Source of the DNA: Escherichia coli | GTDB lineage: Bacteria > Pseudomonadota > Gammaproteobacteria > Enterobacterales > Enterobacteriaceae | Length of the DNA: 64,000 nucleotides | Assembly: GCF_044324785.1 (NCBI RefSeq) | Contig: NZ_CP172127.1 | Strand: one strand, 5' to 3' | Part shown: positions 31,490-58,811 of the stretch, one piece after another | Layout of the letters: every line of letters begins with the position of its first letter | Position numbering within the stretch: the first letter of the stretch is position 1 | Notes under the pieces: model-generated | The model's database searches: none | Seen by the model: the letters and a program-made list of their open reading frames with translations, nothing else | Told to the model about the DNA's origin: nothing | Translations under genes and position numbers: made by a program

Positions 31490-31577
31490 GGTGAGGTGTC
31501 CGAGTGGCTGAAGGAGCACGCCTGGAAAGTGTGTATACGGCAACGTATCGGGGGTTCGAATCCCCCCCTCACCGCCA
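31490..31577 (+). tRNA. serW: tRNA-Ser (anticodon GGA)
   Basis: 88-nt sequence GGTGAGGTGTCCGAGTGGCTGAAGGAGCACGCCTGGAAAGTG...GGTTCGAATCCCCCCCTCACCGCCA with a long variable arm and an encoded CCA; adjacent to infA as serW is in K-12. Confidence 0.95.
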
Positions 31578-35681: not shown

Positions 35682-36167
35682 TCAGTCGATGATGCGCATA
35701 ATGGCGCTGCATTCCGGATGCTGCAGGGCGTAATCCCGCAGCCGGTAATAATGGACCGTCATGGCATAACACTCCGTACGACAGGCGTGATGACTGTACG
35801 TCATCAGACAGGCAGCAATGCCGGCAGCTTCCGGACTCATTTCAGCGCGGTTACCGTTCATGGCATTGAACAGTACCCATGTTTCGTCATCATCGTCATC
35901 CGGTTCGGGTGCCATAAATGCCCCGCCGTTGTTCAGGGTGTACAGATTCCAGATACCACCGCAGTAGTCTTCACACAGACGGTCCATCCAGCCGAAGACA
36001 CGGGGCTCCAGGGCCACCCACTGTGGAATGAGGCCAAAGTGCTGCGGCCAGAAGCTGATGCGCTGTTCATCAGGGACTATGGTGGCAACCAGCTGAGGCT
36101 GGTCATTCCCTGATGCAGCGGTTACGGAAACAGAAGGAGTGGTGGAATTATGCAAGACGGTTGTCAT
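35682..36167 (-). CDS. Antirestriction-like protein (YfjX/KlcA-like family)
   Basis: 161-aa acidic protein containing a DDDDDE stretch; position upstream of radC-like as in CP4-type modules. Confidence 0.65.
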   Translation of the reverse strand: MTTVLHNSTTPSVSVTAASGNDQPQLVATIVPDEQRISFWPQHFGLIPQWVALEPRVFGWMDRLCEDYCGGIWNLYTLNNGGAFMAPEPDDDDDETWVLFNAMNGNRAEMSPEAAGIAACLMTYSHHACRTECYAMTVHYYRLRDYALQHPECSAIMRIID

Positions 36168-36258
36168 GAGATTATTCCTTATAAAAAGTAAATGAATGGA
36201 AGAAATCCCGGGGGAAGGGACAGACGTGAGTCAGAACTGCGCTTTCAGGGAAACGGCA

Positions 36259-37077
36259 TCAGCGCATACTCTCCAGCAGCGTTTCAGCCATCACCCACAA
36301 TGCGCGGTTGAGCTTAATGTCGGTGTCGATGCTGTGAATGGCACGGGTATGGATACGTTTTCCTCTGGCACTGCGACCGGAAATCCCGCCTTTCAGCATA
36401 TTCTCCTGAATGGTCTGATAAGCACTCCACAGGTCCTTACCGTAATCCTCCCGGCGTCGTGGCGTCAGAATGTCGGCGGTGGTGACGGGCCGATGTTCGT
36501 CACCATAACGGTAAGTCAGTGCCGCCTGTGCCAGCGCCTGGCGTGCCGGTGGCGGCAGAATCAGCGACTGCATGGCATCACGCTTTTCCTCAATCCGGTC
36601 AAAAACCCCCACCACCTCGTAAGCCCCTTCAATAACTTTCTCCACCACATTTCCCCGGTGCGGAACACGCACTTCCCCCAGAGACTGACCACAGACGCAT
36701 CCGTTCTGACAGACGAACCTGAAGTAACCCGGCAGCATCTGGTAGCTGGAGGTACCGTCATGGGAGTTGAGCAGAATGATTTCAGGGACATGTTCTCCGT
36801 TTATCTCTCCGGCCCGCCGCAGACGCAGCATATGTTTTGTGTATCCCCGGCGGCCCGGGTCGCGCACACGGGTCTGGCAGGCGAAGAATGGCTGAAAGCC
36901 TTCCCGCTGCAGGCTTTCCAGTACGGTGATGGTGGGAATGTACGCATATCGTTTACTGCGGGAAGTATGCCGGTCTTCACCGAAAATACTGGGAACATAG
37001 TGCATCAGTTCTTCGTGTGTCAGCGGACGGTCACGGCGTATCTGGTTCGTATAACCAAAACGACTGGCTAGTCGCAT
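36259..37077 (-). CDS. DUF932-like island protein (YafZ family)
   Basis: 272 aa; position within the CP4-type module. The overlapping plus-strand ORF 36196-37071 is taken as an artefact. Confidence 0.65.
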   Translation of the reverse strand: MRLASRFGYTNQIRRDRPLTHEELMHYVPSIFGEDRHTSRSKRYAYIPTITVLESLQREGFQPFFACQTRVRDPGRRGYTKHMLRLRRAGEINGEHVPEIILLNSHDGTSSYQMLPGYFRFVCQNGCVCGQSLGEVRVPHRGNVVEKVIEGAYEVVGVFDRIEEKRDAMQSLILPPPARQALAQAALTYRYGDEHRPVTTADILTPRRREDYGKDLWSAYQTIQENMLKGGISGRSARGKRIHTRAIHSIDTDIKLNRALWVMAETLLESMR

Positions 37078-37403
37078 AATTTGCTCCTTATGAATGAGTT
37101 AGCGGTATAAATGAAAAAGCCGCGTCTCCCGGAGAAGACACGGCCTGACAGATGAAATGAATGACGTTTATTGTCTGAGAAGCCCTTCACTGGCGAGCTG
37201 CGTATTTTTATGGAAGGAGATCACCCAATAACCCCATCGGGATCGGGTAATAACCGGCCAGACTGTGATCGATTCAGATGCCATTTGGCAGCAAAAGAGC
37301 CTTCGGCAATAAACGTGATGTACAACCCGGCATATCTGTTACTCCCTGAAAGTAAAAGGCCCCGGTCATTATGACCGGGGCCTGAAGGGGAGTGACCTGA
37401 TTA

Positions 37404-40250
37404 TCAGAAAGTCACATTCAGCGTGGCCTGACCGTTATAGCCTTCGGCGCTGCTGCCGCTGACGCTGTGGGCATAACCGGCCTGAACGCCCAGGGTGATA
37501 TTTTCCCGGACACGGGCTTCCAGTCCGGCCTGCAGGTCCAGTGACGTGCCATTCTGGGACGGTGAGAACGTCATGTTACTGCCGGCGGCGGCTGTCCCCA
37601 TGCTCATGTCACCCCGGGAACTGAAGGTGCGGATAACAGAAGGCTGTACCCACCAGTTCACCGGCAGTTCACGCACACGGTGTTTTGCACTGTCGCGCAG
37701 GGTGTCACGGGATGAGGTGCCTTCACCAAAGCTCATATCGTTGTGGCTGCCCAGACGGAAGCCGGCACGCATATGTTGTGCACTGCCATGCCCGAACTTC
37801 ACATAACCGGCGTTATCCTGGCCGTCATCCAGGGAAAGTCCCTGCCAGGTGTACTGCAGTTGTGGTTCCAGCATCAGGTTGTCAGTGATACTGAAGGGCA
37901 GACCGGTTTCCAGTGAGCCCAGCCAGCCCCAGCCCCGGGCGCGGAAGTCGTTATTGTCCGATGACGCTTTCATGCTGTGGCGGGTTCCCTGTGCCATAAT
38001 GTCAGCCCACAGGCCGGAGGACGTGTGTACCAGATTCAGGTATCCGCCCAGGCTGCCGGCATCATCCCGGACCGTGCCGGCGCGGGAGCCGTCATCATCC
38101 TTAACATCAACGGAAGAATGGCCAGCAGCACTATATACCCCCGCGGTCACAGACATACCGGCAACCTCTGTTCTCAGCAGGTCACTCTCCAGACGGACGA
38201 AGCCATAGCTGCCGCTGCTTTCCGGCGTGGCCCCACGGGCAATACCGCCGTTGTTATCGTGACCGAGATGACCGCCCTGAATGCTGAGACGGACGCTGTT
38301 ATTTTCACCGTTTACACCGGTCTGATGGCTGCGGGAGCCTGCCAGAATCCGGTCATAGTCCATTGCCTGTGTCAGCATGGAGGCATACAGGGGGACTTCA
38401 GCACGATAAGCATTTTCACTGCGCAGGTACCAGTCTTCATCGCTGTCACGGTTCAGGGTGTAGTTAAAGGCACCGGCCTGAAGCGGGCGACTCAGGGCAA
38501 ACGCACCTTCTTCTGTGGTGGCACCATTCTGTGCATCCACAACCCGGATACCCTGTCCGGAAGTTGCCACCCCGAGGTTACTGTTTCCGACATTTGTGAA
38601 CGCAAGCCAGGTTTTGCCGGTTGCCTGACCACCATTAATCACCAGCTGGTCAGAGGCATTGCTGCCATCAAGGCGAACACGCATATTGATGGTGCCACCC
38701 TGACCGGTGAGGTTACTGGTGGTCAGTTTATGGAACGTTACCGGGGCGTCGCCTTTTGCAACAGCACGGCTCAGGACGGCATCCTGTGTCGTCTGATTAT
38801 CAAAGCGAATCTCCCCTGCGTTAACAATATCGCCGGTACTGACCACATCACCATTCAGTACCATGCTGGCGCCTTTACTGAGCTGTGTTCTGCCACTCAG
38901 ACTTCCCCCGGCAGCCAGCGTCAGTGTTCCACGATGTCCGACAGTGGTGTTGCCAGCCTGTCCCCCGGCATTAACCGTAAAGCTGCCGCCATTTTCCAGC
39001 AGCAGGCCGCTGGCCTGACCGGATATGCCATCAATACTGAACTTACCGCTGGCATTGGTCCCCTCAACAGTGGCACCACTGTCTGCAATCAGGGCACCAC
39101 CGGATGTCATGGTGACACCTGTCGCCTTACCACCGGCAGACACTGCCAGGGTACCGCCGTCATCCACCCGTGTTTTCTGCGCTGAATGACCCTCCAGTAC
39201 ATCCAGACGACCGCCGGACTCCAGAACAACACCGTCAGCCTTACCGTTTTCCACCGCGAAATTGCCCAGACGGTTGCTGCCGGTGACGGTTGCCGCCGTA
39301 CTGGTGACCAGTGCGCCTCCCTGCTTCAGGGTGACATTCGTGGCTGTACCACCGGCGTTCACCTGCAGTTTGCCTTTCTGGTTAACGGTGGTGAAATCCG
39401 CCAGACCACCTTCCTTGATAATCTGCCAGCCGTCACTGTTCACAACAGTGTCAGACGTTGTACCGCCGTTGTGTACATACTGGTTACCGCCATTCAGCGT
39501 GGTATCCAGTGCGTGGCCATGTACCGTCTGGTCGCCGCCGGCATAAACCACAGTGGTATTTGCTGTTCCTTCAACAGTCACAATCTGACGACCATTTTTA
39601 TTGATGGTGGTACGTACGGCATTTCCGCGAACAAACTGCCCGGTATCACCATTTTCTGCATCCGGTCCTCCTTCTGCGCCGGTATTCACAACGGTGTCTG
39701 TTGCCACTGCGCCGGGTTTGACGACCTGCCAGCCCTTATCATTAATGACGGTTCCTGTGGCTATCGCACCTTCATGCATCCACTGCTCGCCACCATTCAG
39801 CGTGGTGTTCAGTGCCAGTCCCTTCAGGCTTTGTCCGCCTCCTTCATTGATTATTGTGTCTGTAGCCTTTCCCCCGGCACCTACAAACTGGAGCCCGCCG
39901 CTGCTGATGGTGGTATTACTGGCTGTGCCGCCATCCTGTACCCATTGCCCGCCGGTATTGGCCTCGTTATCCGTCCCATACTCCAGCCCGGTACTGATGG
40001 TCATTCCGTTGGTCGTACCGAAGACAATCTGGTTGTCATGATTTGTCAGTGTTCCGCCGTTCACGGTTTCTCCCGCCTCTACAACCGTGTCAGCAGCCAG
40101 TGCCGGGACTGGCGTGACAGCAGCAAGAGACAGCGCAACCGCCACACCGGCGCGTTTTCCCCGTGAGCGGGCCAGTTCGGAAGCCACCACCAGGGTGCCC
40201 GTAATGTGATTCCATACCAGCCTGTAGCTGGTGTTCAGATGTCGTTTCAT
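37404..40250 (-). CDS. flu: Antigen 43 (Ag43/Flu) self-associating autotransporter adhesin
   Basis: Start taken at MKRHLNTSYRLVWNHITGTLVVASE... (extended autotransporter signal peptide); Gly/Thr-rich beta-helix passenger; C-terminal beta-barrel ending ...GQATLNVTF. The ORF-track frame extends 25 codons further upstream. Confidence 0.9.
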   Translation of the reverse strand: MKRHLNTSYRLVWNHITGTLVVASELARSRGKRAGVAVALSLAAVTPVPALAADTVVEAGETVNGGTLTNHDNQIVFGTTNGMTISTGLEYGTDNEANTGGQWVQDGGTASNTTISSGGLQFVGAGGKATDTIINEGGGQSLKGLALNTTLNGGEQWMHEGAIATGTVINDKGWQVVKPGAVATDTVVNTGAEGGPDAENGDTGQFVRGNAVRTTINKNGRQIVTVEGTANTTVVYAGGDQTVHGHALDTTLNGGNQYVHNGGTTSDTVVNSDGWQIIKEGGLADFTTVNQKGKLQVNAGGTATNVTLKQGGALVTSTAATVTGSNRLGNFAVENGKADGVVLESGGRLDVLEGHSAQKTRVDDGGTLAVSAGGKATGVTMTSGGALIADSGATVEGTNASGKFSIDGISGQASGLLLENGGSFTVNAGGQAGNTTVGHRGTLTLAAGGSLSGRTQLSKGASMVLNGDVVSTGDIVNAGEIRFDNQTTQDAVLSRAVAKGDAPVTFHKLTTSNLTGQGGTINMRVRLDGSNASDQLVINGGQATGKTWLAFTNVGNSNLGVATSGQGIRVVDAQNGATTEEGAFALSRPLQAGAFNYTLNRDSDEDWYLRSENAYRAEVPLYASMLTQAMDYDRILAGSRSHQTGVNGENNSVRLSIQGGHLGHDNNGGIARGATPESSGSYGFVRLESDLLRTEVAGMSVTAGVYSAAGHSSVDVKDDDGSRAGTVRDDAGSLGGYLNLVHTSSGLWADIMAQGTRHSMKASSDNNDFRARGWGWLGSLETGLPFSITDNLMLEPQLQYTWQGLSLDDGQDNAGYVKFGHGSAQHMRAGFRLGSHNDMSFGEGTSSRDTLRDSAKHRVRELPVNWWVQPSVIRTFSSRGDMSMGTAAAGSNMTFSPSQNGTSLDLQAGLEARVRENITLGVQAGYAHSVSGSSAEGYNGQATLNVTF

Positions 40251-40459
40251 CAGCTTTTCCTTACAGAGGGTGAATAAAAAAGCCGGTACCCACAAATGTG
40301 GATACCGGCAGGTACAAAACAGCATGGTCAGATAAAGTGGTTTTTCCCGGACATAAATGCTTCCCCTCTCTCATCCGCCAGAGAAGTATCAGTCCGTTGT
40401 GTGCAATTCCGTTCTGCATGATGAAGAGATTCAGCTGCCTTTTCGCAGACCATTAACCA

Positions 40460-40510
40460 CCATAAACGATCGATGACAACGATCGATACCTGTTTTATCG
40501 ATCGTTTTAT
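40460..40510 (-). promoter_or_regulatory. Ag43 phase-variation switch: cluster of three GATC (Dam) sites in the flu upstream region (expected OxyR-binding region)
   Basis: GATC at 40468, 40481 and 40500 within ~35 bp, 210-260 bp upstream of the flu start. Confidence 0.6.
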
Positions 40511-40621
40511 TCTATTAACAGCAAGGCAGTCACGCAAGAGAAAGAGGTGGGTATGAGGTGTTTGTATCATGTTTTCAGTTGGTTAACGCAATGTAATCAG
40601 GCATTTCCCCTGGCAGAATGT

Positions 40622-41494
40622 TCAGAAGAAAATCCAGTTCCATACAGCGCGGGCAACAGAGACCACCGTGTCACGGACGACACGCAGAACCGTACGAGCC
40701 ACAGAGGCAACACAGACGCTCTCCGCCGTGTCAAATATCCGGTCCACCGCACCGGTAAACTGTTCACGGGCCTGCCCCCGGACAGATTCCGTGCACAGCT
40801 CGTCCTGCAGGCGGGTCATCAGGGGACTGGCGGCATGGTCGGGAAGTGCTGTCATGAGCGCACTGACCAGCGTATCCAGTTCCCAGCCGGTGCGGGCCGA
40901 TACGGCCACAACCGGATGTACGGGCCGGAACAGACGGAATACCGCCTCCGTTTTTTCGCGAATGTTCTGTGCCTGTGCGGGAGAAGGCTGAATACCGGCC
41001 ATATCCCATTCATGGCAGGGCTCCGTTTTATCGGCCTGCGTCACCACAAACAGCACCTGCTGATGTCCCCGGTGCAGGATGTGTCGCCAGAAATACTCAT
41101 CCACAGACAGGGCACGGTCATCGGCTTTAATCAGCCACAGTACCAGGTCAAGTTCAGGCAGAATGTCACGGTACAGGGCTTCATACTCTGCATCCCTGTC
41201 CCGGCTCTCGCCCACCCCGGGCAGGTCAGTGATAACCATGCTGTGACCGTGGCCACTCAGACGGAAGCGCCGCACTTCCCGGGTGCCGGCGTGAACATCA
41301 CTGACCGGGGTGACCTCCCCCTGAAACAGTGCATTACAGAGTGAGGATTTACCGGCCCCGCTTTTCCCCATAATGCCAATCACGGGTTCGTGACTGGTGA
41401 GTTTACGCAGATGTTCCAGGATGTGACGGGAAAGTGAGTAAGGCAGGGAAGAAAGTGGTTTTTCAATTGCCTCAATGGCATCAGACGGATTCAT
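40622..41494 (-). CDS. YeeP/YkfA-like GTPase (50S ribosome-binding GTPase family)
   Basis: P-loop GIMGKSGAGKSSLCNALF and DLPG G3-like motif; start taken at MNPSDAIEAI... Confidence 0.75.
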   Translation of the reverse strand: MNPSDAIEAIEKPLSSLPYSLSRHILEHLRKLTSHEPVIGIMGKSGAGKSSLCNALFQGEVTPVSDVHAGTREVRRFRLSGHGHSMVITDLPGVGESRDRDAEYEALYRDILPELDLVLWLIKADDRALSVDEYFWRHILHRGHQQVLFVVTQADKTEPCHEWDMAGIQPSPAQAQNIREKTEAVFRLFRPVHPVVAVSARTGWELDTLVSALMTALPDHAASPLMTRLQDELCTESVRGQAREQFTGAVDRIFDTAESVCVASVARTVLRVVRDTVVSVARAVWNWIFF

Positions 41495-41757
41495 ACATGT
41501 ATTCCCGGTGAAAAAAGACAAAACCCCGCGCACCGGAAAGGTGGCGGGGGATTCACGGAGATAATATCTGTCTGAAATTATTTAGAATGCACCTGGTGCA
41601 CTGCAAAGGAAAGGCAATATTCCGTTCCTCCTCCTTGTCGTGAATACCCCAGGTATCTCACAATGTACACCGACTTACTCCGGGGCTGCCTGAACCACAA
41701 GATTGCTGTAGAATTGCCCCCAATGATTCAGGTCCAAACCAGGAAAATGGATTAAAA

Positions 41758-43167
41758 ATGACAAGTATTCAACAACGAGCAGAACTGCACCGCCAGATAT
41801 GGCAAATTGCCAATGATGTCAGAGGTTCTGTTGACGGATGGGATTTTAAGCAATACGTTCTGGGCGCGCTTTTCTACCGTTTTATCAGCGAAAATTTTTC
41901 CAGCTATATTGAAGCCGGTGATGACAGTATCTGTTATGCGAAACTGGATGACAGCGTAATTACTGATGACATTAAAGACGATGCCATCAAAACTAAAGGC
42001 TACTTCATCTACCCAAGTCAGCTTTTCTGCAACGTAGCTGCGAAAGCAAATACCAATGACAGACTGAATGCAGATTTAAACAGTATCTTCGTTGCTATCG
42101 AAAGTTCTGCTTACGGTTACCCTTCAGAAGCTGACATCAAAGGTTTGTTTGCTGATTTCGATACCACCAGTAACCGCCTGGGTAACACCGTTAAGGATAA
42201 AAATGCCCGCCTGGCTGCGGTTCTGAAAGGGGTTGAAGGGTTAAAACTTGGTGACTTCAACGAACATCAGATTGACCTGTTCGGCGATGCCTATGAGTTC
42301 CTGATTTCTAACTATGCGGCGAATGCTGGTAAGTCAGGCGGCGAGTTTTTTACACCGCAGCATGTCTCTAAGCTGATTGCACAACTGGCTATGCACGGGC
42401 AGACCCACGTTAACAAAATCTACGACCCAGCCGCAGGTTCCGGTTCGCTGTTGTTACAGGCGAAAAAGCAGTTTGATGACCATATCATCGAAGAAGGCTT
42501 TTTTGGTCAGGAGATCAACCATACGACCTATAACCTGGCGCGTATGAACATGTTTTTGCACAACATCAACTACGACAAGTTTGATATCAAGCTGGGCAAT
42601 ACGCTGACTGAGCCGCACTTCAGAGATGAAAAACCGTTTGATGCCATCGTTTCTAACCCGCCGTATTCAGTGAAATGGATTGGCAGCGATGACCCGACGC
42701 TGATTAACGATGAGCGTTTTGCCCCGGCTGGCGTCCTGGCCCCCAAATCAAAAGCTGACTTCGCGTTTGTATTACATGCGCTGAACTATCTTTCGGCCAA
42801 AGGTCGCGCCGCGATTGTCTGCTTCCCGGGTATTTTTTACCGTGGCGGCGCAGAGCAGAAAATCCGTCAGTATCTGGTCGATAATAACTATGTCGAAACC
42901 GTGATTTCACTGGCACCGAACCTGTTCTTTGGCACCACCATTGCCGTAAACATTCTGGTGCTGTCTAAACATAAAACGGATACCAAAGTTCAGTTTATTG
43001 ACGCCAGCGAACTGTTCAAAAAAGAGACTAACAACAATATCCTGACCGATGCCCATATCGAACAGATTATGCAGGTATTTGCCAGCAAGGAAGATGTTGC
43101 TCATCTGGCGAAATCTGTTGCGTTTGAGACTGTTGTCGCGAATGACTATAACGGCTTTGTTGAATAA
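41758..43167 (+). pseudogene. hsdM: Type I restriction-modification methyltransferase subunit HsdM (IC/EcoR124-like), 3'-truncated by IS903; no hsdR or hsdS present
   Basis: N-terminus [47 protein letters not shown]; SAM-binding motif [10 protein letters not shown]; catalytic NPPY motif ([11 protein letters not shown]). The last 4 codons plus stop (GFVE*) are encoded by the IS903 terminal repeat starting at 43153. 469 aa versus ~520 expected. Confidence 0.75.
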
Positions 43168-44209
43168 ATCAGATTTCGGGTAAGTCTCCCCCGTAGCGGG
43201 TTGTGTTTTCAGGCAATACGCACGCTTTCAGGCATACCTGCTTTCGTCATTTTGTTCAGCGCTCGTACCAGGGCCATAGCCTCCGCAACCTGACCATCGT
43301 AGTCACGCAGCGTCAGTGAACCCCCGAACAGCTGTTTTACCCGGTACATCGCCGTTTCCGCTATCGAGCGACGGTTGTAATCTGTTGTCCATTTCCACCG
43401 CGCATTACTCCCGGTCATTCGCTGATTAGCCACTGCACGGTTACGGTCTGCATATTCACCGGGCCAGTAACCCGCACCTTTTCGGGGAGGGATAAGCGCG
43501 CTGATTTTCTTACGCCGCAGTTCATCGTGACATAGCCGGGTATCGTAAGCGCCATCGGCGGCGGCTGACCTGATTTTCCGGTGGGTTTGCCGGATTAACC
43601 CGGGGAAGGCCTCTGAGTCCGTAACGTTGTTCAGCGACAGGTCAGCGCAGATGATTTCATGTGTTTTACTGTCAACGGCGAGATGCAGCTTACGCCAGAT
43701 ACGGCGGCGTTCCTGGCCATGCTTTTTGACTTTCCACTCGCCTTCACCGAAGACCTTCAGCCCGGTGGAATCAATTACCAGGTGTGCGATTTCACCCCGG
43801 GTGGGCGTTTTGAAACTGACATTAACCGACTTTGCCCGCCTGCTGACACAGCTGTAATCCGGGCAGCGTAGCGGAACGTTCATCAGAGAAAAAATGGAAT
43901 CAATAAAGCCCTGCGCAGCCCGCAGGGTCAGCCTGAATACGCGTTTAATGACCAGCACAGTAGTGATGGCAAGGTCAGAATAGCGCTGAGGTCTGCCTCG
44001 TGAAGAAGGTGTTGCTGACTCATACCAGGCCTGAATAGCTTCATCATCCAGCCAGAAAGTTATGGAGCCACGGTTGATGAGGGCTTTATTGTAGGTGGGC
44101 CAGTTGGTGATTTTGAACTTTTGCTTTGCCACGGAACGGTCTGCGTTGTCGGGAAGATACGTGATCTGATCCTTCAACTCAGCAAAAGTTCGATTTATTC
44201 AACAAAGCC
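43153..44209 (-). mobile_element. IS903-like insertion sequence (IS5 family), 1057 bp, without target-site duplication
   Basis: 18-bp terminal inverted repeats GGCTTTGTTGAATAAATC at 43153-43170 and, inverted, at 44192-44209. Length equals IS903 as I recall it. The 9-bp flanks differ (gactataac vs gttacccgc). Confidence 0.85.
43209..44132 (-). CDS. IS903 transposase (DDE)
   Basis: GTG start at 44132 gives a 307-aa product (VAKQKFKITNWPTYNKALINRGSITFWLDDEAIQAWY...); the ORF-track frame extends to 44177. Confidence 0.85.
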   Translation of the reverse strand: MAKQKFKITNWPTYNKALINRGSITFWLDDEAIQAWYESATPSSRGRPQRYSDLAITTVLVIKRVFRLTLRAAQGFIDSIFSLMNVPLRCPDYSCVSRRAKSVNVSFKTPTRGEIAHLVIDSTGLKVFGEGEWKVKKHGQERRRIWRKLHLAVDSKTHEIICADLSLNNVTDSEAFPGLIRQTHRKIRSAAADGAYDTRLCHDELRRKKISALIPPRKGAGYWPGEYADRNRAVANQRMTGSNARWKWTTDYNRRSIAETAMYRVKQLFGGSLTLRDYDGQVAEAMALVRALNKMTKAGMPESVRIA

Positions 44210-45339
44210 GTTACCCGCTCTTCAATCTCATGCAATTGATTATGCAATATCGCATTTTCATCCTTTTGCCCGGCTAATGAGTGGGTAAGCGTCTCAACTT
44301 CTTGCTGTAATGCGGAGCTCCTGGCCTGGAAAAACTCAAGTTCCTTCAGAACCCGATCTTTAAGAGAGAATAGGTACTCTTCAGCTGACAGCGTGGTGAT
44401 CCTATGATGGGCGGCGGCGATAAATTCATCATAAAAATCATCACTCTTTGCATCCAGGGCAACAACAAACTCTTTCACTTGCTGATAAAACGGGTGAAAT
44501 GCCGGACCAGAAATCGTGTTTAAATGCCACTCAAGGAACACGACAACATAGTTTTTATAATCTCTGAGACGGTGTTCCATCATCCCCTGCTGACAGATAA
44601 ACGCTTTAAGCGCCACCAATGCTTCAACAGCACAGCGGTGCGACTCTGCTCGCGTGGCGGATAGGGATTCACTACGGTTGATGGTATGAGAAATTAACGT
44701 TTCATTTAAGACCGAAATTCTGTTCGCCATGAGCATAAATGCGCAGACGAAGAAAAGATCGTTGGTCGTCCTGATTTCCTGAAAGCGAAGCTGATGACTA
44801 GTAATAAATTGACGCCTGAGAAGCTTGTCCCATGGCCACCAGACAAAGGTGCGGAAAAAGTCAGAGGGAATATCCTGGGATGAAAAAAACTTGAGATCAG
44901 GTAACAGCTCCTGGCGCACTGACCACGGCATCGGAGCATAAACCTGCAAGGCGGGATCAAAAGACTGGCTGCGACAGATAACGACATCCGCTTGTATATC
45001 GCTAGCACGTGCGTACATGCGCTCCAACATCATGTTATCGACATAATCGTCGTCATCAAGAAAAATAACGTACTCACCGGTAGCAGCATCCAACCCGATG
45101 TTTCTTGAGCCTCCCCCACCAAGATTTGTCGTGTTGTTAATGACTCTAATTCGTGAATCAGTTTCAGCCAGCGCCGAGACAATCTCTAAGGTATTATCGT
45201 CAGAACAATCGTTGACAATAATGATTTCAATATCATTTAATGTTTGCGACAAAACAGTGCTCAATGTGTCGGAAATATATCCCGCCGCATTGTGCACAGG
45301 GATAATAACGGAAACAGCTATACTCTCTTTTTCAGACAT
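44179..45339 (-). CDS. Family-2 glycosyltransferase; C-terminus replaced by IS903-derived codons
   Basis: N-terminal GT-A fold (VIIPVHNAAGYISDTLSTVLSQTLNDIEIIIVNDCSDDNT ... FLDDDD). The last 9 codons and the stop lie inside the IS903 right inverted repeat (IS boundary 44209). Confidence 0.7.
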   Translation of the reverse strand: MSEKESIAVSVIIPVHNAAGYISDTLSTVLSQTLNDIEIIIVNDCSDDNTLEIVSALAETDSRIRVINNTTNLGGGGSRNIGLDAATGEYVIFLDDDDYVDNMMLERMYARASDIQADVVICRSQSFDPALQVYAPMPWSVRQELLPDLKFFSSQDIPSDFFRTFVWWPWDKLLRRQFITSHQLRFQEIRTTNDLFFVCAFMLMANRISVLNETLISHTINRSESLSATRAESHRCAVEALVALKAFICQQGMMEHRLRDYKNYVVVFLEWHLNTISGPAFHPFYQQVKEFVVALDAKSDDFYDEFIAAAHHRITTLSAEEYLFSLKDRVLKELEFFQARSSALQQEVETLTHSLAGQKDENAILHNQLHEIEERVTALLNKSNFC

Positions 45340-45460
45340 GCAATCACCTTGACGCTTAGCTTATAAACGTAATTATATTTATTTATGGGTAGCGTTTAAT
45401 TTGTAGGTTGCCAGTTTATTAAGGATGGGTAAGATGAAAGCGACTGAGCTTCATCAAAAA

Positions 45461-46606
45461 TTACTCTTCAACAACATCACGATATGTTTTTAATGTTTTA
45501 TTAATGATCATCACACTCGAGAATTTATCTTGAATGCGTTTTCTGCCATTGATACCCATTGCGACGCGCGTTTCTGGGTTATCCAACAGGAAACCGAGTT
45601 TCTCCGCTAATTCCTCGACAGATTTACTTTTTACAATCAACCCATTATAGTTATTGATAATTAAGCTATCACAGCCACCAACATCATAAGCGATACAAGC
45701 GCGCCCGACAGAGGAAGCTTCCAGCAAGATACGCGGTACGCCTTCGGCGTAGACCGACGGCAAAGCAACGATATTTGATTCTTCAATTAAATCAAATACA
45801 TTAGAGCAATGACCGAGCCAGTTAATCACGCCTTCGCTTTGCCACTTCTGTATCGTCGCCAGCGGAATTGCGTCTTTATCATTCTCAACTAAAATACCGG
45901 CAACATTCAGCGTAAAGTGAATATTTTTATTACTCAGTATTTTTTTGGCTTCAATCAGGTCACCCAGTCCTTTACTCCACAGCATACGGCTGGCAAAAAG
46001 GACGACCGGAACATCACGCTGCTGCTCCAGAGAGTATTTGTAAATCTCTGGATTAATACCCGCGCCATCAATAACAATAGTCTGTTTGTAATCGATACCA
46101 ACCAGATCGGCAAGTTTAGCTCTGTCTTTATCATGTTCGAACATAAACAAACTGCATTTGTTACTGGCGATATACTTATATGCCATAACAGTAAAACTTC
46201 GCAGCAGCTTAAGACAGGCAGACTCTGCGGAAAATACTCGGCCCAAACCGACAAAACTCAGAATAACAGGACGATGGGTACTTTTAGCCAGAAAACCGCC
46301 GATCAAACAGGGCTTGATGGTAATGCAGTGCAACAAATCTGGATTGATGTTTTGAATAATTTTCCGAGCCTTAGAAAAGGCCCGAAAGAAAATCAAAACG
46401 TTGAATGATTGGGCGACAAGTGGAATGTTATGGCAAACAAAACCTAATGTCCTGAATTTTTCCGCTATTTTATCATCGACAAAATGGCTAATAATGTGAA
46501 TCTCATAACCGGCATCTCGGGCGGCAATTGCACGATCGGTCCAATGCAAATCAAAATACCAATCCGAATTTATGAAATAACACAGTTTTTTCATTGCTAT
46601 GTCCAC
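45461..46606 (-). CDS. wbbO: GT4-family glycosyltransferase, WbbO-like (galactosyltransferase of D-galactan I pathway)
   Basis: 381 aa; GT-B C-terminal signature EGVPRILLEASSVGRACIAYDVGG; position matches the last gene of the Klebsiella wzm-wzt-wbbM-glf-wbbN-wbbO order. Confidence 0.75.
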   Translation of the reverse strand: MDIAMKKLCYFINSDWYFDLHWTDRAIAARDAGYEIHIISHFVDDKIAEKFRTLGFVCHNIPLVAQSFNVLIFFRAFSKARKIIQNINPDLLHCITIKPCLIGGFLAKSTHRPVILSFVGLGRVFSAESACLKLLRSFTVMAYKYIASNKCSLFMFEHDKDRAKLADLVGIDYKQTIVIDGAGINPEIYKYSLEQQRDVPVVLFASRMLWSKGLGDLIEAKKILSNKNIHFTLNVAGILVENDKDAIPLATIQKWQSEGVINWLGHCSNVFDLIEESNIVALPSVYAEGVPRILLEASSVGRACIAYDVGGCDSLIINNYNGLIVKSKSVEELAEKLGFLLDNPETRVAMGINGRKRIQDKFSSVMIINKTLKTYRDVVEE

Positions 46607-48666
<2,060 letters not shown>

Positions 48667-50559
48667 TTAGCCAAGAATCGAACGGCGAACTTTATAATAA
48701 TATTTGATGAGCTTATTTCTTCTTGGCGAACCGACAGGAGCATATTTGTTAACATATGGCATTAAAGCTCTTTTAATCTTTGTCTGCAGTAACACGGTTT
48801 GCTGCAGTTCAGTATGTTGGTTAGGTACTACCGTGGCCACAGGTAACTGGCGATAGTAGATTTCTTTCTCCCATGGCGTACTTAAAACATTCTCAAGAAA
48901 ATCATCATAGAAATCGACTTTCTCAGTATTCCATGGTTTGTTTTCACCCGCATAGTGAATCATTTTTGGATTTCTTCTGGCTTGCAAAAAGCGCATATAG
49001 GTTGAAAACTTGAGATTCGGGAAGAAATCATCGGTATTACCATTACCATGGTACACGTTCCATTCTAATGGTAAGAATTTGACTCGGCCAAAGAAGACTT
49101 TGTTCATGATATCCTGATCTAAGAACCAATACTTTTTGGCTTTCAATGCTGACATCAATTGAGCAAAGGTATTCTCTGTAACCATTTGTTCGACATTAAA
49201 AACAATAATCCCGGCCTGAAAATATTCGTCAGGATTAGTCATTCCTAATGTCTTTTTCAGGTATTGCTCTGCAGGCATAATGCCATCATCTGATTCTGAC
49301 ATGGTACCAAACTTCACAAACCCTTCCATGACGATGTCTTTAACAGCGGCAACCAGGTTAGTGCCGATCTCGACATCCAGAAGTGTCGCCAAATCAGCCT
49401 TCACCACGGTGTCAGAATCGATAAACACAACTTTTTTATACTCGCGGAAAAGTTGCGGGATGAACAAGCGCGCATAGGTCGACGCACTAAAATGTGCACG
49501 GGTATGAACATCACTCATCTCAGTGAATGAATTCACATCAAAAAAGCGCAATGATATGTTGTTATGACCAGCAACTAGCTTGATAAGGCGTTGTTTATTT
49601 AAATGACTGACCTTATTTTCCAGAACAACGATATCATAGTTTCTGCTCGCATCAGAATGGAGAACAATTGAATTGATTAATGCCCCGCCACTTAATGCAT
49701 AGTTATTATCAAAACTAATAACAACCGGTACGCTTTCGTCAAAAACGGGCTTTAATTTACCATTAAATGTTTCAGCAGTAACAAACGTGCGCTGTAGTTC
49801 TTTTATTTTTAGCTGTTTATCTTGTTGACATTTGATGATATAGATATTGAATAAACGCTCAGCAATGTGTCCTATAACTCGTTTTTCTTGAGCGTTGTAG
49901 TTATTCATCGAAATCCGATCTTCAAGATTAGACAAAATAGCAAAAAGCCATTCAGAATAATCCAGGAACATGTCTTTGCGCATAACAAACATGTTCGTAT
50001 AATAACCATCAGTTGCATTATTGAATTGTTGAATCGCAGCTTTATATTGTGGATACAGCTCTTCAACGACATCCAGGGCAGACTGATAGTCTTTAATGTG
50101 TAAAAACTCACCTTTTGCATAATGATCAAGGTTATTCTTACTTCCTGCCGATGTTACCGACCATTTTTTGGGTAACAGCAGATCATATCCATCGACGCAG
50201 GTGCTTATGGATTCATCACTTAATCCAAACTGGCTTTCGTATTCGGCATTGATGAGCGGGTAGTTGACTACCCCCCAGTTATCCTCAGGATGATTTTGTT
50301 GTTCTGCAAAGTTCAAGTGTCTGCGGTAATGCATGAATCCCACATAGTCAGCCAGAGATTCATTCTTCCACACCCAGTAGTGGGCCGTCAGCTCACAATA
50401 GAAGGGGTTTTTAAAGGAAATGTTGTCTCCGCTATCATCCCCTTCACAGCCAATATCATTATAAGTATTAGCCTTCCCGACATGCAGTGGTTTAATAATA
50501 GAGGCATTTAGAAAAGCACTGGGTTTGTGGTGACATGTATAAATTTTGATACTATTCAT
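48667..50559 (-). CDS. wbbM: WbbM-like bifunctional glycosyltransferase (N-terminal DUF4422-like domain + C-terminal GT8 domain)
   Basis: 630 aa; C-terminal GT8-like region (VVISFDNNYA...FIDSDTVV). Size and position match Klebsiella WbbM. Confidence 0.8.
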   Translation of the reverse strand: MNSIKIYTCHHKPSAFLNASIIKPLHVGKANTYNDIGCEGDDSGDNISFKNPFYCELTAHYWVWKNESLADYVGFMHYRRHLNFAEQQNHPEDNWGVVNYPLINAEYESQFGLSDESISTCVDGYDLLLPKKWSVTSAGSKNNLDHYAKGEFLHIKDYQSALDVVEELYPQYKAAIQQFNNATDGYYTNMFVMRKDMFLDYSEWLFAILSNLEDRISMNNYNAQEKRVIGHIAERLFNIYIIKCQQDKQLKIKELQRTFVTAETFNGKLKPVFDESVPVVISFDNNYALSGGALINSIVLHSDASRNYDIVVLENKVSHLNKQRLIKLVAGHNNISLRFFDVNSFTEMSDVHTRAHFSASTYARLFIPQLFREYKKVVFIDSDTVVKADLATLLDVEIGTNLVAAVKDIVMEGFVKFGTMSESDDGIMPAEQYLKKTLGMTNPDEYFQAGIIVFNVEQMVTENTFAQLMSALKAKKYWFLDQDIMNKVFFGRVKFLPLEWNVYHGNGNTDDFFPNLKFSTYMRFLQARRNPKMIHYAGENKPWNTEKVDFYDDFLENVLSTPWEKEIYYRQLPVATVVPNQHTELQQTVLLQTKIKRALMPYVNKYAPVGSPRRNKLIKYYYKVRRSILG

Positions 50560-50573
50560 CTTATTACCAATTA

Positions 50574-51314
50574 TTAAGCCATTGCTTGCTTGTAAAGTTC
50601 AATGATTCTCTCTGCTGAGCCAATTTCGCGGAGTTTATGGTTTTCGATCCAAACAACTCTGTCACAGATTTTTTCAACATCACTCATATTGTGGCTAACG
50701 AATAATATCGTTACACCCTTATTTTTGAAGTCTCGTATTGTTTGTATACATTTGGCCTGGAACGAAATGTCACCGACAGCAAGTACCTCATCGATAATAA
50801 GTATATCGGGTTCTACCTGGCTGATGACAGAGAATCCAAGCTTCGCAAGCATACCACTTGAGTACACGCGAATAGGTTCGTCAATGAAATCACCCAGCTC
50901 GGAGAACTCAATTATCCGATCCATCCGTTGCTGAACCTCTTTGCGGCGTAGCCCAAGCAGGGTCGCATTGAGATAAATATTTTCTCGCCCGGTTAATTCA
51001 GGGTGAAAACCGCCGCCTAGCTCAAGCATTGAGGCAACGCGTCCCTGGGTTGTAACAGTGCCTTTTGTAGGCTTAATGACGCCGGCCACCAGCCCGAGGG
51101 AGGTACTTTTCCCTGCGCCGTTACGACCAATCAGCGCTACGGCCTCGCCTTTACCCACGGTGAAGGTAATGTCTTCGATCGCAAGATATTTACGCCCTTT
51201 TAACAGCTGAAAAGCTCTTTTAGGGTGAAATACGAGATCCTTAATTCCTGAGCCAATATGGTGGTAAAGAGGATACTCTTTCGTAACGTGACTAAAGTTT
51301 ATTACTGGTTCCAT
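50574..51314 (-). CDS. wzt: O-polysaccharide ABC transporter ATP-binding protein Wzt (short form, no carbohydrate-binding extension)
   Basis: 246 aa; Walker A GRNGAGKST, signature YSSGMLAKL, Walker B ILIIDE. Confidence 0.9.
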   Translation of the reverse strand: MEPVINFSHVTKEYPLYHHIGSGIKDLVFHPKRAFQLLKGRKYLAIEDITFTVGKGEAVALIGRNGAGKSTSLGLVAGVIKPTKGTVTTQGRVASMLELGGGFHPELTGRENIYLNATLLGLRRKEVQQRMDRIIEFSELGDFIDEPIRVYSSGMLAKLGFSVISQVEPDILIIDEVLAVGDISFQAKCIQTIRDFKNKGVTILFVSHNMSDVEKICDRVVWIENHKLREIGSAERIIELYKQAMA

Positions 51315-52093
51315 TACAAAATCTCTGCAAATCGATATTTTAATTTATTAAAAATACTCAGGCCCACAATTGTCAGGACTAAACCTGTAATGTAAAGGAT
51401 TGAAATATATTCATAATTTAAGACGCCATCCATGAACAGCTGCCGCCAGCTGAGGATCATGCTTGCCAGAGGATTATAGGTAATAATCCAGCTAAATTTT
51501 TCAGGAATCATATCTGACGCATATAATATCGGCGTGCAATAAAACATGAGCATGATACCAAGGCTGACAAATCGCTCTAAATCCCTGAAGAACAGATTTA
51601 GCGTAGAAAATATGATTGAAATACCAAATGTAAAAATCACCTGACCAAGCGCAATAATTGGTACGCCCCAGAGCCATGAGAGCGATGGACGCATACCATA
51701 CACGAACAGGAATGCAATAATCACAGGAATTGTACACAAGAAATGTACCCCTTCCATCATGACATTACTCAATGGAATAACTGAGCGCGGAAAAACTGTT
51801 TTTTTGATTATTTGCGCATTGGCTATAAACGAAAACAAGGAATTTGTCGCCGAGCTGGCAAACCATTGCCACGGAAATAAACCGGTAATCAAGAAAAGGG
51901 TATAATTCGGGATCTGCACTCGCATAACGAGCTTAAAAATGAAATAATATATCATTGCAAAAAGCAGTGGATTCGCAATTGACCATAAGTAACCAAATAC
52001 GCTGCTTTTATAACGTACCTTTAAATCTTTGTTTGTTATAACAACAAGAAGATCAAACAAATACCCTATATTATACTTCATTTTTATACTCAT
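51314..52093 (-). CDS. wzm: O-polysaccharide ABC transporter permease Wzm
   Basis: 259 aa; six-TM ABC-2-type permease; stop overlaps the wzt start. Confidence 0.9.
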   Translation of the reverse strand: MSIKMKYNIGYLFDLLVVITNKDLKVRYKSSVFGYLWSIANPLLFAMIYYFIFKLVMRVQIPNYTLFLITGLFPWQWFASSATNSLFSFIANAQIIKKTVFPRSVIPLSNVMMEGVHFLCTIPVIIAFLFVYGMRPSLSWLWGVPIIALGQVIFTFGISIIFSTLNLFFRDLERFVSLGIMLMFYCTPILYASDMIPEKFSWIITYNPLASMILSWRQLFMDGVLNYEYISILYITGLVLTIVGLSIFNKLKYRFAEIL

Positions 52094-52390
52094 AAATTAT
52101 TCTACAAAAAATTCCGTACGTAATATGTATCAAACAGAATTATCGATAAGATCTGCTGTGCTCGAGAGACGAACAGCTATTCCCATAAACAAAGACCAAT
52201 TGTAACATCATTTTGCACAAGCAATATGTAAACAATCTTTCCTGCGCATTAGCACTCCGGAATCGGAGATGATCGCTAACCTCAGTAACCGCTGAATGAA
52301 AATGTGATTCTCGTGGAAGATACATAAACCATCCTTTAAGATTGTAAATAAAATGTTAAATCGAACAATGAGTTTATTCTAAAATTCAGA

Positions 52391-52402
52391 CACGCTACCG
52401 CC
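52391..52402 (-). promoter_or_regulatory. ops element (RfaH recruitment site, part of a JUMPstart) in the leader of the wzm operon
   Basis: Plus strand reads cacgctaccgcc; its reverse complement is the exact ops sequence GGCGGTAGCGTG, on the operon strand about 300 bp upstream of wzm. Confidence 0.7.
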
Positions 52403-53051
52403 ATTGGCTATCGCAACCAAAATGCGGACTCCCCTCTCTAAAGTGTCTGTCTTACCCGGTCTTACCGTAACGAAGAGGATACGCTCGTCGTTAGCTCCAC
52501 AAGCATTACCGGCGCAGCATTCATGAAGCCACAAACAGCCTAGTCAGCGTTCGGCAAAAAAGCTAAAAACAAACGGATATCTGTACTCAGCGCCCCTCTC
52601 CGGACTCACATCCATCGCTACACCGCAACAAATGCACCGCTACTTTCCCCAGTTTATGGCATCCTATCCATCAGGACTTTCTCATTTCACCCTTGAAACC
52701 AACAAAAAGCGTCACTCTCGGCAGTATGACTTCAACAGCCATGTAGCTGGGCGCTCCGCATCTCTACATGAGTCAGGCAGAGTATTAAGTTCGCGGGCAG
52801 GCAGCGGCAACACCACCAGGATAACGTACTTCCTCATCCTATCTTGCATAAAAGTGAATTTGACTTTTCTTCAAAAGTGGTCAAATCCGAGCGTCGTAGG
52901 GTACGTTTGCTGCGCATTATCAATAATGCATCCGTAGGACGTGAATTACGCGCGCATTATAGCTCTGGTCTGGAAGAATAAAAATGAAAAAGCATGACCA
53001 ATCCATCCAGCCAAAAAATACTGAAGTGGTCAACAAAAACTGGCCACCGAG

Positions 53052-53455
<404 letters not shown>

Positions 53456-53640
53456 GTAAGCGTCGTCTGAGTACCGTCTGGTCCCGAATCCAGGATCCTG
53501 TAACTTAAGCACCCACTTATTTTGCAGGTGGACACCTCATGCGCACCAAAGAACGACTCCCCCGGAAACGCTATTCTCCTGAATTTAAAATGGAACTGGT
53601 CAGGCTGGCCCTTGAACAAGATGTCACGAACGGTGCAATA

Positions 53641-55366
53641 GTGGTTCTTCCGCAACTTGGGTGGAAGAAAATGGATGAAACTTTCTGGTGAACAAGGATC
53701 TAAGCTGTTTTAAGTTATGGGCAACGCAATGCACTCTCTTAAGACACTTCTACAGTTACCTTGCGGATGGCGATGCAGTCGACAAATTATTAGCTCTGAC
53801 GGTATCACCCTCCATCTCCACGGAAAACGCAAAACAGCACAATGTCCTGAATGCTCTAAGCGTAGCGACTCTGTTCATAGTTCTCGTCGGCGCCGGATAC
53901 AGCATCTACCCTGCTCCGGGCAGACGCTATGGCTTGTATTTTCCGTCCGCCACTGGTACTGCCGTAACCCTGTTTGTTCACGAAAAATTTTTGCCGAGTC
54001 GCTTGCTCCCTTCGCCGGTTCACACCAGCAGTCTTCACAGGCGTTACAAAATTTACAACGTCAACTGGGATTAATAGCCGGAGGTGAGGCTGGAAAACGG
54101 GCTGCAACGGCAGTGGGTCTCCGTTGCAGTGCAGATACTCTTCTTCGCAGGGTTATCAATACCCCGGGGACGAAACAGTCAGGCGCGCCTCATGTCGGTA
54201 TTGATGAGTGGGCGTGGCATCGGGGCCACCGTTACGGTAAGTTAATCGTCAATCTTGATACTCACCGTCCCCTCGTCCTGCTTCCCGGTCGTGATCAGCG
54301 TACGCTGGCGACCTGGTTCAGAAAATATCCGGAAATACAGGTTGTCTCGCGTGATCGCAGTGGAGTCTATGCAACAGCAGCACGTGAAGGTGCACCTCAG
54401 GCCAGACAGGTGGCCGATCGATGGCACCTGCTAAAAAATATTGGCGATGCGCTTGAACGAATGATGTACAGACATATACCTCTGATACGTCTTGTTGCCA
54501 GTGAGTTGTCACTAAAGAAATCACCTGAGCCAGAACTGTCTGTGCCTGCAGTATCGCTCCGTCGTCCGGAACGCCTTAAACAGCAAACCCGCAAAAAACG
54601 GCATCAGCGTTGGACAGAGGTTATGGCCCTGCATAACAAGGGATGTAGTTTCAGGGAAATATCCCGTATTACAGGCCTGTCGCGTGTGACAGTCAGTCGC
54701 TGGGTGCGTTCAGGAACATTCCCTGAAATGTCAACCCGACCTCCAAAGCGAGGGCTTCTGGACCCATGGAGGGAGTGGTTAAAAGAGCAACGAGAAAGCG
54801 GTAATTATAACGCCAGCCGGATATGGCGGGAAATGGTGGCCCGGGGGTTTACAGGCAGTGAAACCATCGTCAGGGATGCTGTTGCCAAATGGCGTAAAGG
54901 CTGGATCCCACCGGTTACTACTGCCGCCAGACTTCCTTCAGTGTCCCGGGTAAGCCGGTGGTTGATGCCCTGGAGAATAATCAGGGGGGAAGAAAATTAT
55001 GCTTCCCGATTTATTAGTCTGATGTGTGAAAAAGAACCGGAGCTGAAAATAGCGCAGCAACTGGTACTCGAGTTCTACCGTATTCTGAAAACCCAAAATA
55101 AATCACAGCTTAGCAGCTGGTTCACTCGAGTCCACGAAAGCGGCTCAGCAGAACTTCGGCGCGTGGCTGCGGGGATGGAAGCTGATGCTGCGGCTATATG
55201 TGAGGCAATCAGCAGTCGCTGGAGTAATGGTGTTGTCGAAGGTCATGTAAATCGCCTGAAGATGTTGAAACGCCAGATGTATGGTCGAGCCGGATTTGAA
55301 CTGCTCAGGCAGAGGGTCATGAGTCCACTGGCATGAAAATCTCCACCCAAGTTGCGGAAGAACCAC
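53641..55366 (+). mobile_element. ISL3-family insertion sequence nested inside the IS66-like orfA
   Basis: 25-bp perfect terminal inverted repeats GTGGTTCTTCCGCAACTTGGGTGGA at 53641-53665 and, inverted, at 55342-55366; encloses a single transposase gene. Confidence 0.75.
53717..55336 (+). CDS. ISL3-family transposase
   Basis: 539 aa; N-terminal zinc-finger-like region (CGWRC...CPEC); ISL3-like architecture. The second Met at 53729 is an alternative start. Confidence 0.8.
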   Translation: MGNAMHSLKTLLQLPCGWRCSRQIISSDGITLHLHGKRKTAQCPECSKRSDSVHSSRRRRIQHLPCSGQTLWLVFSVRHWYCRNPVCSRKIFAESLAPFAGSHQQSSQALQNLQRQLGLIAGGEAGKRAATAVGLRCSADTLLRRVINTPGTKQSGAPHVGIDEWAWHRGHRYGKLIVNLDTHRPLVLLPGRDQRTLATWFRKYPEIQVVSRDRSGVYATAAREGAPQARQVADRWHLLKNIGDALERMMYRHIPLIRLVASELSLKKSPEPELSVPAVSLRRPERLKQQTRKKRHQRWTEVMALHNKGCSFREISRITGLSRVTVSRWVRSGTFPEMSTRPPKRGLLDPWREWLKEQRESGNYNASRIWREMVARGFTGSETIVRDAVAKWRKGWIPPVTTAARLPSVSRVSRWLMPWRIIRGEENYASRFISLMCEKEPELKIAQQLVLEFYRILKTQNKSQLSSWFTRVHESGSAELRRVAAGMEADAAAICEAISSRWSNGVVEGHVNRLKMLKRQMYGRAGFELLRQRVMSPLA

Positions 55367-55467
55367 TTTTCATCCGTCGTTGACACAAGAGGGCAGTATC
55401 GCTGCTCTGGCCCGTCAACATGACGTCAACGATAATCTGCTCTTTAAATGGATAAGGCTCTAGCAAC

Positions 55468-55695
55468 GTGAAGGGCGGGCGGGTCTGTCGACCCCGAAAA
55501 AATGCATCGTCGCTTCCTACCCTGATACCCGTGCAACTTCAGGCGGAGCCTTCTCTCCCGGAATTCGAACCACTATCCTGTTCACCTCCCACTGCCTGCC
55601 ACATAAAATGTCGGGGCGGAGAAATAACGCTGACCTCTCCCTCAGTTGAGCTTATGAGCACTGTCCTGCGCGAACTGATGCGGGGGTCTGTATGA
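55468..55695 (+). pseudogene. IS66-family OrfA C-terminal fragment
   Basis: 75-aa ORF ending ...LMSTVLRELMRGSV, whose stop overlaps the orfB start in the typical IS66 arrangement. Confidence 0.5.
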
Positions 55696-56877: not shown

Positions 56878-57080
56878 TTTCTGCCCTCAATGCAGCTAAT
56901 TCATCGCTGTCAGATTTATGAACCATATTCGTTACCTGTATCCGATCCACTGAGGCACCACGGCAGAAATTCGGGTCCCCTACACTGATGACAAAGCGCC
57001 CCGCCCTCTTCTGCCTATTAACTCAAGCACCTCCCAACAACTTACAGAAACTTAATTCTAATACCTAATACAGCTGTAAT

Positions 57081-58775: not shown

Positions 58776-58811
58776 CTGCTATTGTTGCTAGCCGGCTAGC
58801 AACAATAGCAG
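58776..58811. repeat. Perfect 36-bp palindrome (18-bp arms, no spacer) just downstream of the 607-aa gene
   Basis: ctgctattgttgctagcc|ggctagcaacaatagcag read directly; preceded on the plus strand by tttttatttttt. Confidence 0.7.

Follow-up and report, generated by a model that had tools for sequence, protein, structure and literature searches.

An intact YeeP-family GTPase gene with a conserved terminator-like leader in a tRNA-associated island of Escherichia coli

Is the yeeP-type gene of an Escherichia coli island a maintained GTPase gene, or is it a relic whose reading frame has stayed open? In K-12, yeeP (b1999, 426 nt) is annotated as a pseudogene, as a preliminary description of the present locus had stated when it pointed here to an uninterrupted ORF with a complete P-loop. 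The locus lies in a 64,000-nucleotide stretch of E. coli chromosome, called the window below, and the features discussed are collected in Table 1. In the ORF listing the gene is uninterrupted from the ATG at 41494 and consists of 290 codons and a stop (873 nt). The region 40300-41800 is 100% identical to E. coli SMS-3-5 and to many other complete genomes, and RefSeq/PGAP gives the same coordinates in identical genomes, where the product is WP_001069757.1, “GTPase family protein”.

Table 1. Features of the GTPase locus, in window coordinates
Feature	Position	Strand	Basis
YeeP-family GTPase CDS, intact	40622..41494	-	ORF, PGAP, Pfam, family alignment, dN/dS
G1 / P-loop GKSGAGKS, residues 43-50	41345..41368	-	read from sequence; family alignment
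G3 / switch II DLPG, residues 90-93	41216..41227	-	family alignment and motif scan
G4 guanine-specificity motif TQAD, residues 152-155	41030..41041	-	family alignment and motif scan
C-terminal helix, residues 264-290, proposed membrane-targeting sequence	40625..40705	-	AF2, hydrophobic moment, paralogues
Promoter-like box TTCTAA, 15-nt spacer, TATTAT	41561..41587	-	cross-genus conservation; paralogue SELEX
Leader hairpin and T-run, intrinsic-terminator-like, 16 nt before ATG	41511..41549	-	terminator scan, fold, covariation
Ag43/Cah autotransporter gene, next downstream, between GTPase and DUF932 genes	37404..40250	-	ORF; SMS-3-5 PGAP
hsdM remnant, divergent, 469-aa ORF, authentic to residue 465	41758..43167	+	ORF; SMS-3-5 comparison

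The mechanical ORF is longer than the gene (40622..41533, minus strand, 303 aa) and begins at an upstream in-frame GTG at 41533. This form was rejected: the GTG lies inside the leader hairpin described below and no homologue reaches that far, while the ATG is the N-terminal limit of the alignment for YkfA, YfjP and the 291-aa orthologues of other genera. The 290-aa form is therefore the gene, and the 303-aa ORF is an artefact of ORF calling. With GGGAA, the window gene has a weaker Shine-Dalgarno sequence than its relatives, which have GAGG.

The protein is matched by Pfam MMR_HSR1 at E = 9e-15 (55 bits against a cut-off of 21.9), and it turned out that the complete G1-G5 set of the family (GxxGxGKS, T, DxPG, [NTS]QxD and SA) is present, so that the P-loop noticed at first is one of five intact motifs. 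In the family alignment G43, G46, G48, K49 and S50 of the P-loop are invariant, as are D90, P92 and G93 of G3; in G4, for which the family consensus is NQxD, D155 is nearly invariant. The motif scan places G2 at T71 and G5 at the SA of residues 199-200. GTP binding and hydrolysis are predicted from these motifs.

The preliminary description had proposed an alignment with K-12 yeeP and YkfA as the check, and in this comparison the window protein is full length and only the K-12 copy is shortened. K-12 and its derivatives keep only nt 321-873 of the window gene (96.6% DNA identity; DNA alignment, BLAST), and on translation what is left matches residues 108-290 of the window protein at 97% identity and aligns nowhere else. 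With codons 1-107 the K-12 copy has lost the P-loop, G2 and G3; its promoter and leader are gone too, and the lost 5' part is replaced by unrelated sequence beside a fragment of yoeA. YkfA (b0253, CP4-6) and YfjP (b2632, CP4-57), both 287 aa and intact in K-12, are co-linear end to end with the window protein at 50-51% identity and have the G motifs and the C-terminal VVSVARAVW helix in common with it. Besides, 29 diverse full-length family members are co-linear end to end in a 32-sequence alignment, with identity down to about 30%, and the 291-aa orthologues align at 100% query coverage. An N- or C-terminal truncation was looked for against YkfA, YfjP and the 29 other members, and none was found. 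Unlike ykfA and yfjP, the window gene belongs to the YeeP sub-lineage (97% to the K-12 yeeP remnant), and K-12 yeeP, whose downstream neighbours IsrC and flu/Ag43 are like those of the window gene, is shown to be a 5'-deleted remnant of the same, orthologous gene.

Such copies are common. Among 5426 complete E. coli genomes, 4754 have any match to the window gene, at a median of two places (any match) per matching genome, and in 4125 a copy spans at least 80% of the gene; the cluster of the 290-aa protein at 98% identity holds 18,190 member sequences. An intact gene is the norm in E. coli and K-12 is the exception. The family has also been described in the SRL pathogenicity island of Shigella flexneri, in which orf46 is a full-length YeeP/YfjP homologue, 97% to YeeP, and the order GTPase, Ag43, YfjQ, YfjX/KlcA, YeeS, YeeT, YeeU is as in the window (PMC6980539); orf46 belongs to another host and another island, and its likeness is taken from the published description, not from a residue-by-residue comparison. 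Since intact copies are usual in E. coli and were described long ago, the preliminary description judged its own observation rightly as a minor one.

Pairwise dN/dS values (NG86) were calculated among the window gene and two further intact E. coli alleles, which are 96-97% identical, and come to 0.07, 0.09 and 0.20; the protein is thus under purifying selection, and this supports calling the gene “intact” in the functional sense also. These values bear directly on the view that the gene is a functionless relic in a decaying cryptic island, with an ORF that is open but not yet disabled. The island is indeed heavily rearranged (hsdM is truncated, there are several IS elements, and about 9 kb found in SMS-3-5 is missing), disabled copies exist in K-12 and, as a frameshifted gene, in E. 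coli GPEC1356, and no phenotype is known for the YeeP/YkfA/YfjP family; but a relic is highly improbable given the low dN/dS between intact copies, the retention of every catalytic motif, the full-length conservation to about 30% identity across many genera, the conserved promoter box and leader, and the expression of YfjP from its native locus. The window gene is an intact, selectively maintained GTPase gene of the YeeP/YkfA/YfjP family (about 290 residues), a statement that we make, jointly with that on the K-12 remnant, with high confidence. An intact gene of this kind is already annotated and known.

To what kind of GTPase the protein belongs was considered from its structure. The AlphaFold2 model made with the 32-sequence alignment (pLDDT 92, pTM 0.90) has helices at residues 3-14 and 19-34, a G domain, and long helices at 236-260 and 264-289; as modelled, the protein is a TRAFAC-class G domain with five motifs, placed between two N-terminal helices and a C-terminal helical hairpin. 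From the Pfam name “50S ribosome-binding GTPase” one might expect a ribosome-associated protein of the Era/EngB/Der type, which would modulate host translation or ribosome assembly for the island. A PDB sequence search does find similarity to Der, Era and MnmE, in the G domain only, and the NCBIfam equivalogs, whose matches likewise cover only the G domain, all score far under their cut-offs: Era at 51.7 against 237 bits (NF000908) and 36.7 against 116 (TIGR00436), EngB/YihA/YsxC at 38.4 against 124.45 (TIGR03598), and Der/EngA at 46.7 against 306.7 (TIGR03594). Because of these scores, and because the modelled helical-hairpin C-terminus has no KH or other RNA-binding domain, identity with Era, EngB or Der was rejected. 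The window protein also differs from these three in its extra N- and C-terminal helices, in its membrane-type tail, and in being encoded by a mobile-element gene and not a core gene. With the localisation of YfjP given below added, a ribosome-associated role is very unlikely.

The leading Foldseek matches of the model are Irga6/IIGP1, Toc34, GIMAP7 and Irgb6/10 (TM about 0.55 over about 290 columns, 17-20% sequence identity). Like the window protein as modelled, the IRG proteins (Irga6/IIGP1), Toc34, GIMAP/AIG1 and the dynamin-like LeoA/BDLP have a G domain between N- and C-terminal helices. IRG, Toc34, GIMAP/AIG1 and dynamin-like GTPases are membrane-associated and act as nucleotide-dependent dimers. 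The window protein has no Pfam IIGP (PF05049) or AIG1 (PF04548) match at E <= 0.01; distant relatives reach 25.4 against 24 bits for IIGP and up to 44.5 against 27 for AIG1 (Pfam), and one of them has a C-terminal Gly-zipper. Pfam Dynamin_N gives 35.9 bits against a cut-off of 27, over profile positions 99-167 only. The protein is much smaller than IRG or bacterial dynamin-like proteins, and with 290 aa it lacks the stalk or neck, the paddle or membrane region and the length of more than 550 aa that define the latter. We read it as a TRAFAC GTPase near the Toc34/AIG1/IRG/dynamin group, without assignment to any of those families.

This relationship raises the question of defence, in which the protein would be a mini dynamin-like GTPase (LeoA/DynA) or an IRG/GIMAP analogue that protects or remodels the membrane on phage attack. 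The leading position of IRG proteins in Foldseek would agree with it, and so would the PADLOC matches to LeoBC (E = 4e-8) and LeoA (E = 4e-4) and the Dynamin_N match; the PADLOC and Dynamin_N matches are, however, limited to the G domain of a 290-aa protein with no stalk, paddle or transmembrane region, and from PADLOC and PHROGs came nothing beyond weak matches to the G domain or families without a known function, with no assignment to a defence system. The genomic context can be read both ways: the GTPase gene adjoins variable defence cargo such as type I R-M, and in one E. coli locus (GPEC1356) a dynamin family gene stands directly after it, whereas the genes conserved with it are of the antirestriction (anti-defence) and toxin-antitoxin kinds, with no known defence effectors among them. 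The literature searches brought up no experimental tie to phage resistance, and we consider a defence role unlikely.

What the protein is proposed to do starts from its C-terminus. The C-terminal helix is modelled with confidence (block pLDDT 89-94 for residues 264-289), and residues 265-284 (RTVLRVVRDTVVSVARAV) have a hydrophobic moment of 0.71, the highest in the protein, with an arginine face. This cationic amphipathic helix ends in the aromatic tail WNWIFF; a C-terminal helical hairpin with an aromatic tail of the W-x-x-F/L-F type is a feature of the family, and the window protein has it. Among the E. coli paralogues VVSVARAVW is invariant, and no part is better conserved than the C-terminal helix. 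A YfjP-EYFP fusion tagged on the chromosome was reported to be membrane-associated, while Era, EngA and EngB fusions are diffusely cytoplasmic in the same study (PMC1874593). Residues 259-287 of YfjP were isolated twice in a BACTH screen with mostly membrane proteins as positives, and the authors of that two-hybrid study classed YfjP as cytosolic (PMC13232886). The membrane data belong to YfjP, a 50%-identical paralogue and not the window protein itself; taken with the modelled helix, they suggest a GTPase switch that is associated with the membrane.

Upstream of the start codon the gene carries a box and a hairpin. The box includes a conserved stretch, TTCAGACAGATATTATC (41560-41576), of which this is the sole perfect match in the window. 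The GC-rich hairpin begins within 11 nt after the box and reads CCCCGCCACC-TTTCC-GGTGCGCGGGG (41524-41549, minus strand), followed by the T-run TTTTGTCTTTTTT (41511-41523, minus strand); the fold of the leader has -19.5 to -21 kcal/mol (z = -2.0). A GC-rich hairpin directly followed by a U-tract, with conservation of structure rather than sequence, is what is found at intrinsic terminators, and both are found here. The same layout of box, hairpin and T-run precedes ykfA and yfjP and the orthologues in Yersinia, Serratia, Erwinia and IMG/VR contigs, although the stem sequence of the window leader is completely different from those of ykfA and yfjP. Generally, the hairpin and T-run are present in all 21 aligned loci (-10.5 to -23.4 kcal/mol), with at least six unrelated stem sequences. 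More distant loci, at about 40% protein identity, have kept the box but not the terminator.

The covariation of the stem rests on a plain MAFFT alignment of 13 yfjP-type leaders (alignment A7), in which 96% of the cells are paired and 6 of 12 pairs are changed on both sides. None of 500 shuffles of this alignment matched the observed percentage paired, the number of both-side-changed cells or the covariation score, and shifting the partner strand cut the pairing to 26-54%. The figures from a second alignment (A8) are inflated, because the covariance model had added extra downstream hits and minus-strand hits. The minus-strand hits are mirror images of the same hairpins, and the extra hits in three loci (L014, L026, L040) were rejected as ordinary intergenic hairpins with a T-run and no box. 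In these three loci a hairpin and T-run follow straight after the GTPase stop (L014 6900-6935 and 9905-9935; L026 6885-6915; L040 6875-6905), only 20-30 nt ahead of the Shine-Dalgarno sequence and ATG of the next gene.

For the paralogues, genomic SELEX with RpoD holoenzyme alone lists the box of ykfA and yfjPQ (TTGAAA-15-TATCAT) as a bound site (PMC3946193). A simple promoter scan of 40200-41900 gave no sigma-70 site; it missed the box because of the 15-nt spacer and the weak -35. A permissive Rfam search of 36000-44500 returned nothing at the leader and only IS102/IsrC downstream, and the SMS-3-5 PGAP feature table, for identical sequence, has no feature at 41511-41587. A mention of ykfA in a riboswitch screen was set aside as irrelevant, its coordinates being about 3 kb off inside CP4-6.

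The most economical reading of the leader has a sigma-70 promoter with a promoter-proximal intrinsic terminator behind it, which would make this an attenuated or regulated leader. Instead, the hairpin could mainly end transcription arriving from upstream, or stabilise the 5' end. Analogues of an attenuated or regulated leader are lambda PR'/tR' with Q and Pseudomonas aeruginosa PalpB/tB with AlpA, in which promoter-proximal terminators are combined with loaded antiterminators (PMC7969949, PMC9371919). The layout is alike, with a sigma-70 promoter, a conserved spacer element and a close intrinsic terminator before an operon; the likeness to Q/AlpA-type antitermination targets is an analogy only, with no antiterminator identified in these islands. 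The AlpA of the islands (PF05930, about 70 aa) was considered for this part and rejected, since it shares no homology with P. aeruginosa AlpA, which is 21Q-like and has eight helices (PMC9371919). A search of E. coli AlpA against PDB sequences did not retrieve P. aeruginosa AlpA and gave only a weak match to 8c3t (E = 0.56), and the idea was dropped because a shared name is not evidence.

The genes of the family lie on P4-like integrative islands of Enterobacterales that are associated with tRNA genes (CP4-44, CP4-6 and CP4-57 type), and the island of the window lies at tRNA-Ser(GGA) (31490-31577). In the identical SMS-3-5 annotation the order from the tRNA is DUF4942, DUF957, DUF5983, CbtA-family toxin, YeeU-family antitoxin, a hypothetical protein, DUF987, JAB/RadC, antirestriction, DUF932, Ag43 and GTPase, all on the minus strand. 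In the direction of transcription the GTPase gene is thus the first, co-directional gene of a module of GTPase, (Ag43 here), DUF932, antirestriction, RadC/JAB, DUF987, YeeU and CbtA. As in the window, ykfA and yfjP are the first gene before a DUF932 gene; the Ag43 gene that stands between the two in the window sets this locus apart from them. In Yersinia ruckeri, Serratia and Erwinia the GTPase gene heads the same co-directional series (WYL/YfjR-like, YfjS/YafY, IrmA/YfjT, DUF932, antirestriction, RadC, DUF987, CbeA/CbtA), and the cargo upstream of it is variable (type I R-M, AlpA, Gp2-like). A tblastn search covered 34 loci from the genomes of these three and from IMG/VR, and in 28 of them module genes follow downstream in the same orientation; the remaining six are the most divergent, and the upstream box is absent from them. 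Terminator-then-RBS junctions recur within the co-directional module, which would fit an operon dependent on read-through.

On the other side of the gene, the hsdM remnant is divergent, as had been described at first, and is cut after residue 465: residues 1-465 match those of the 523-aa SMS-3-5 protein at 100% identity, and the frame then continues into an IS903B-like element. The IS903B-like transposase gene (43209-44177) abuts hsdM, and no hsdS or hsdR follows. About 9 kb of SMS-3-5 is absent from the window here (IS1, two polysaccharide genes and IS256/IS5/IS3 fragments), and this loss is consistent with an IS-mediated adjacent deletion. In SMS-3-5 the island runs on to a DUF3987 protein and a tyrosine integrase adjoining clpA.

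Taken as a whole, the best explanation of the locus is an intact island GTPase, with a proposed role as a membrane switch and with a putative promoter and terminator-like leader of its own; as a whole we think this explanation very probable. As proposed here, the gene would be transcribed from its own sigma-70 promoter box, which we infer for the window gene and which is partly shown in the paralogues, and the transcript would have to pass the promoter-proximal terminator-like hairpin; since read-through would be needed there, the output would probably be attenuated or regulated. The product would be a switch controlled by GTP, anchored peripherally at the inner membrane through its C-terminal helix and probably activated by nucleotide-dependent dimerisation, by analogy with Toc34/AIG1/IRG/dynamin-type GTPases. 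It would serve the island, in establishment, maintenance or conflict with other elements, and not host ribosome assembly. We regard this membrane-switch mechanism as plausible, though somewhat doubtful. A bolder version is more speculative still: the box and the covarying hairpin might form an undescribed cis-regulatory leader that silences the whole accessory operon until an island or helper factor permits read-through, and the GTPase under its control might be a small bacterial relative of IRG/AIG1/Toc34 at the inner membrane, involved in element establishment or inter-element conflict.

Literature searches on yeeP, ykfA and yfjP brought up no functional, biochemical or genetic study of any family member, and PMC3239186 and PMC3401170 have nothing on the YeeP/YkfA/YfjP family; a yfjP deletion was unremarkable in one persister assay. 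The family is thus common, under purifying selection and widespread in Enterobacterales islands, where it heads an operon including antirestriction and toxin-antitoxin genes, yet it is functionally uncharacterised. One or more near-full-length copies are present in most E. coli genomes, so that K-12 is unrepresentative, and the conserved accessory end of the window island is better preserved than K-12 CP4-44. The gene itself is known and ordinary, and the conserved leader is the only mildly new element; together with the proposed membrane-targeting tail, it offers a concrete handle on the function of the family, two such handles in all.

Several further observations were made around the locus. 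Between the GTPase and Ag43 genes, Rfam IS102 (IsrC sRNA) matches 40269-40505 on the minus strand (71.6 bits against a gathering threshold of 46), and at 40467-40506 there are three GATC sites within a near-palindrome, which resembles the known Dam/OxyR phase-variation switch of agn43/flu. In E. coli GPEC1356 (NZ_CM142777.1, L048 3001-6872) the YeeP-type gene is frameshifted, and in place of Ag43 it has behind it the genes for a 798-aa dynamin family protein and for an RdcB-family member; the slot behind the GTPase gene thus takes differing cargo. From about 44179 to 64000 the window holds an IS-riddled polysaccharide cluster far from the usual O-antigen locus (seen also in L001 23880-40767 and L050), with glycosyltransferases, glf, DUF4422, and the RfbB ATPase and permease of an O-antigen-type ABC exporter. 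In K-12 CP4-57 there is a second, near-perfect yfjP-type leader (L004 22452-22570, record 2775451-2775569; 94 bits), followed by seven GTPase N-terminal codons (MSNSEGW and a stop) at the start of the pseudogene ypjI. This start looks like the stump of a second YfjP-like gene, which hints that CP4-57 is a composite of two islands.
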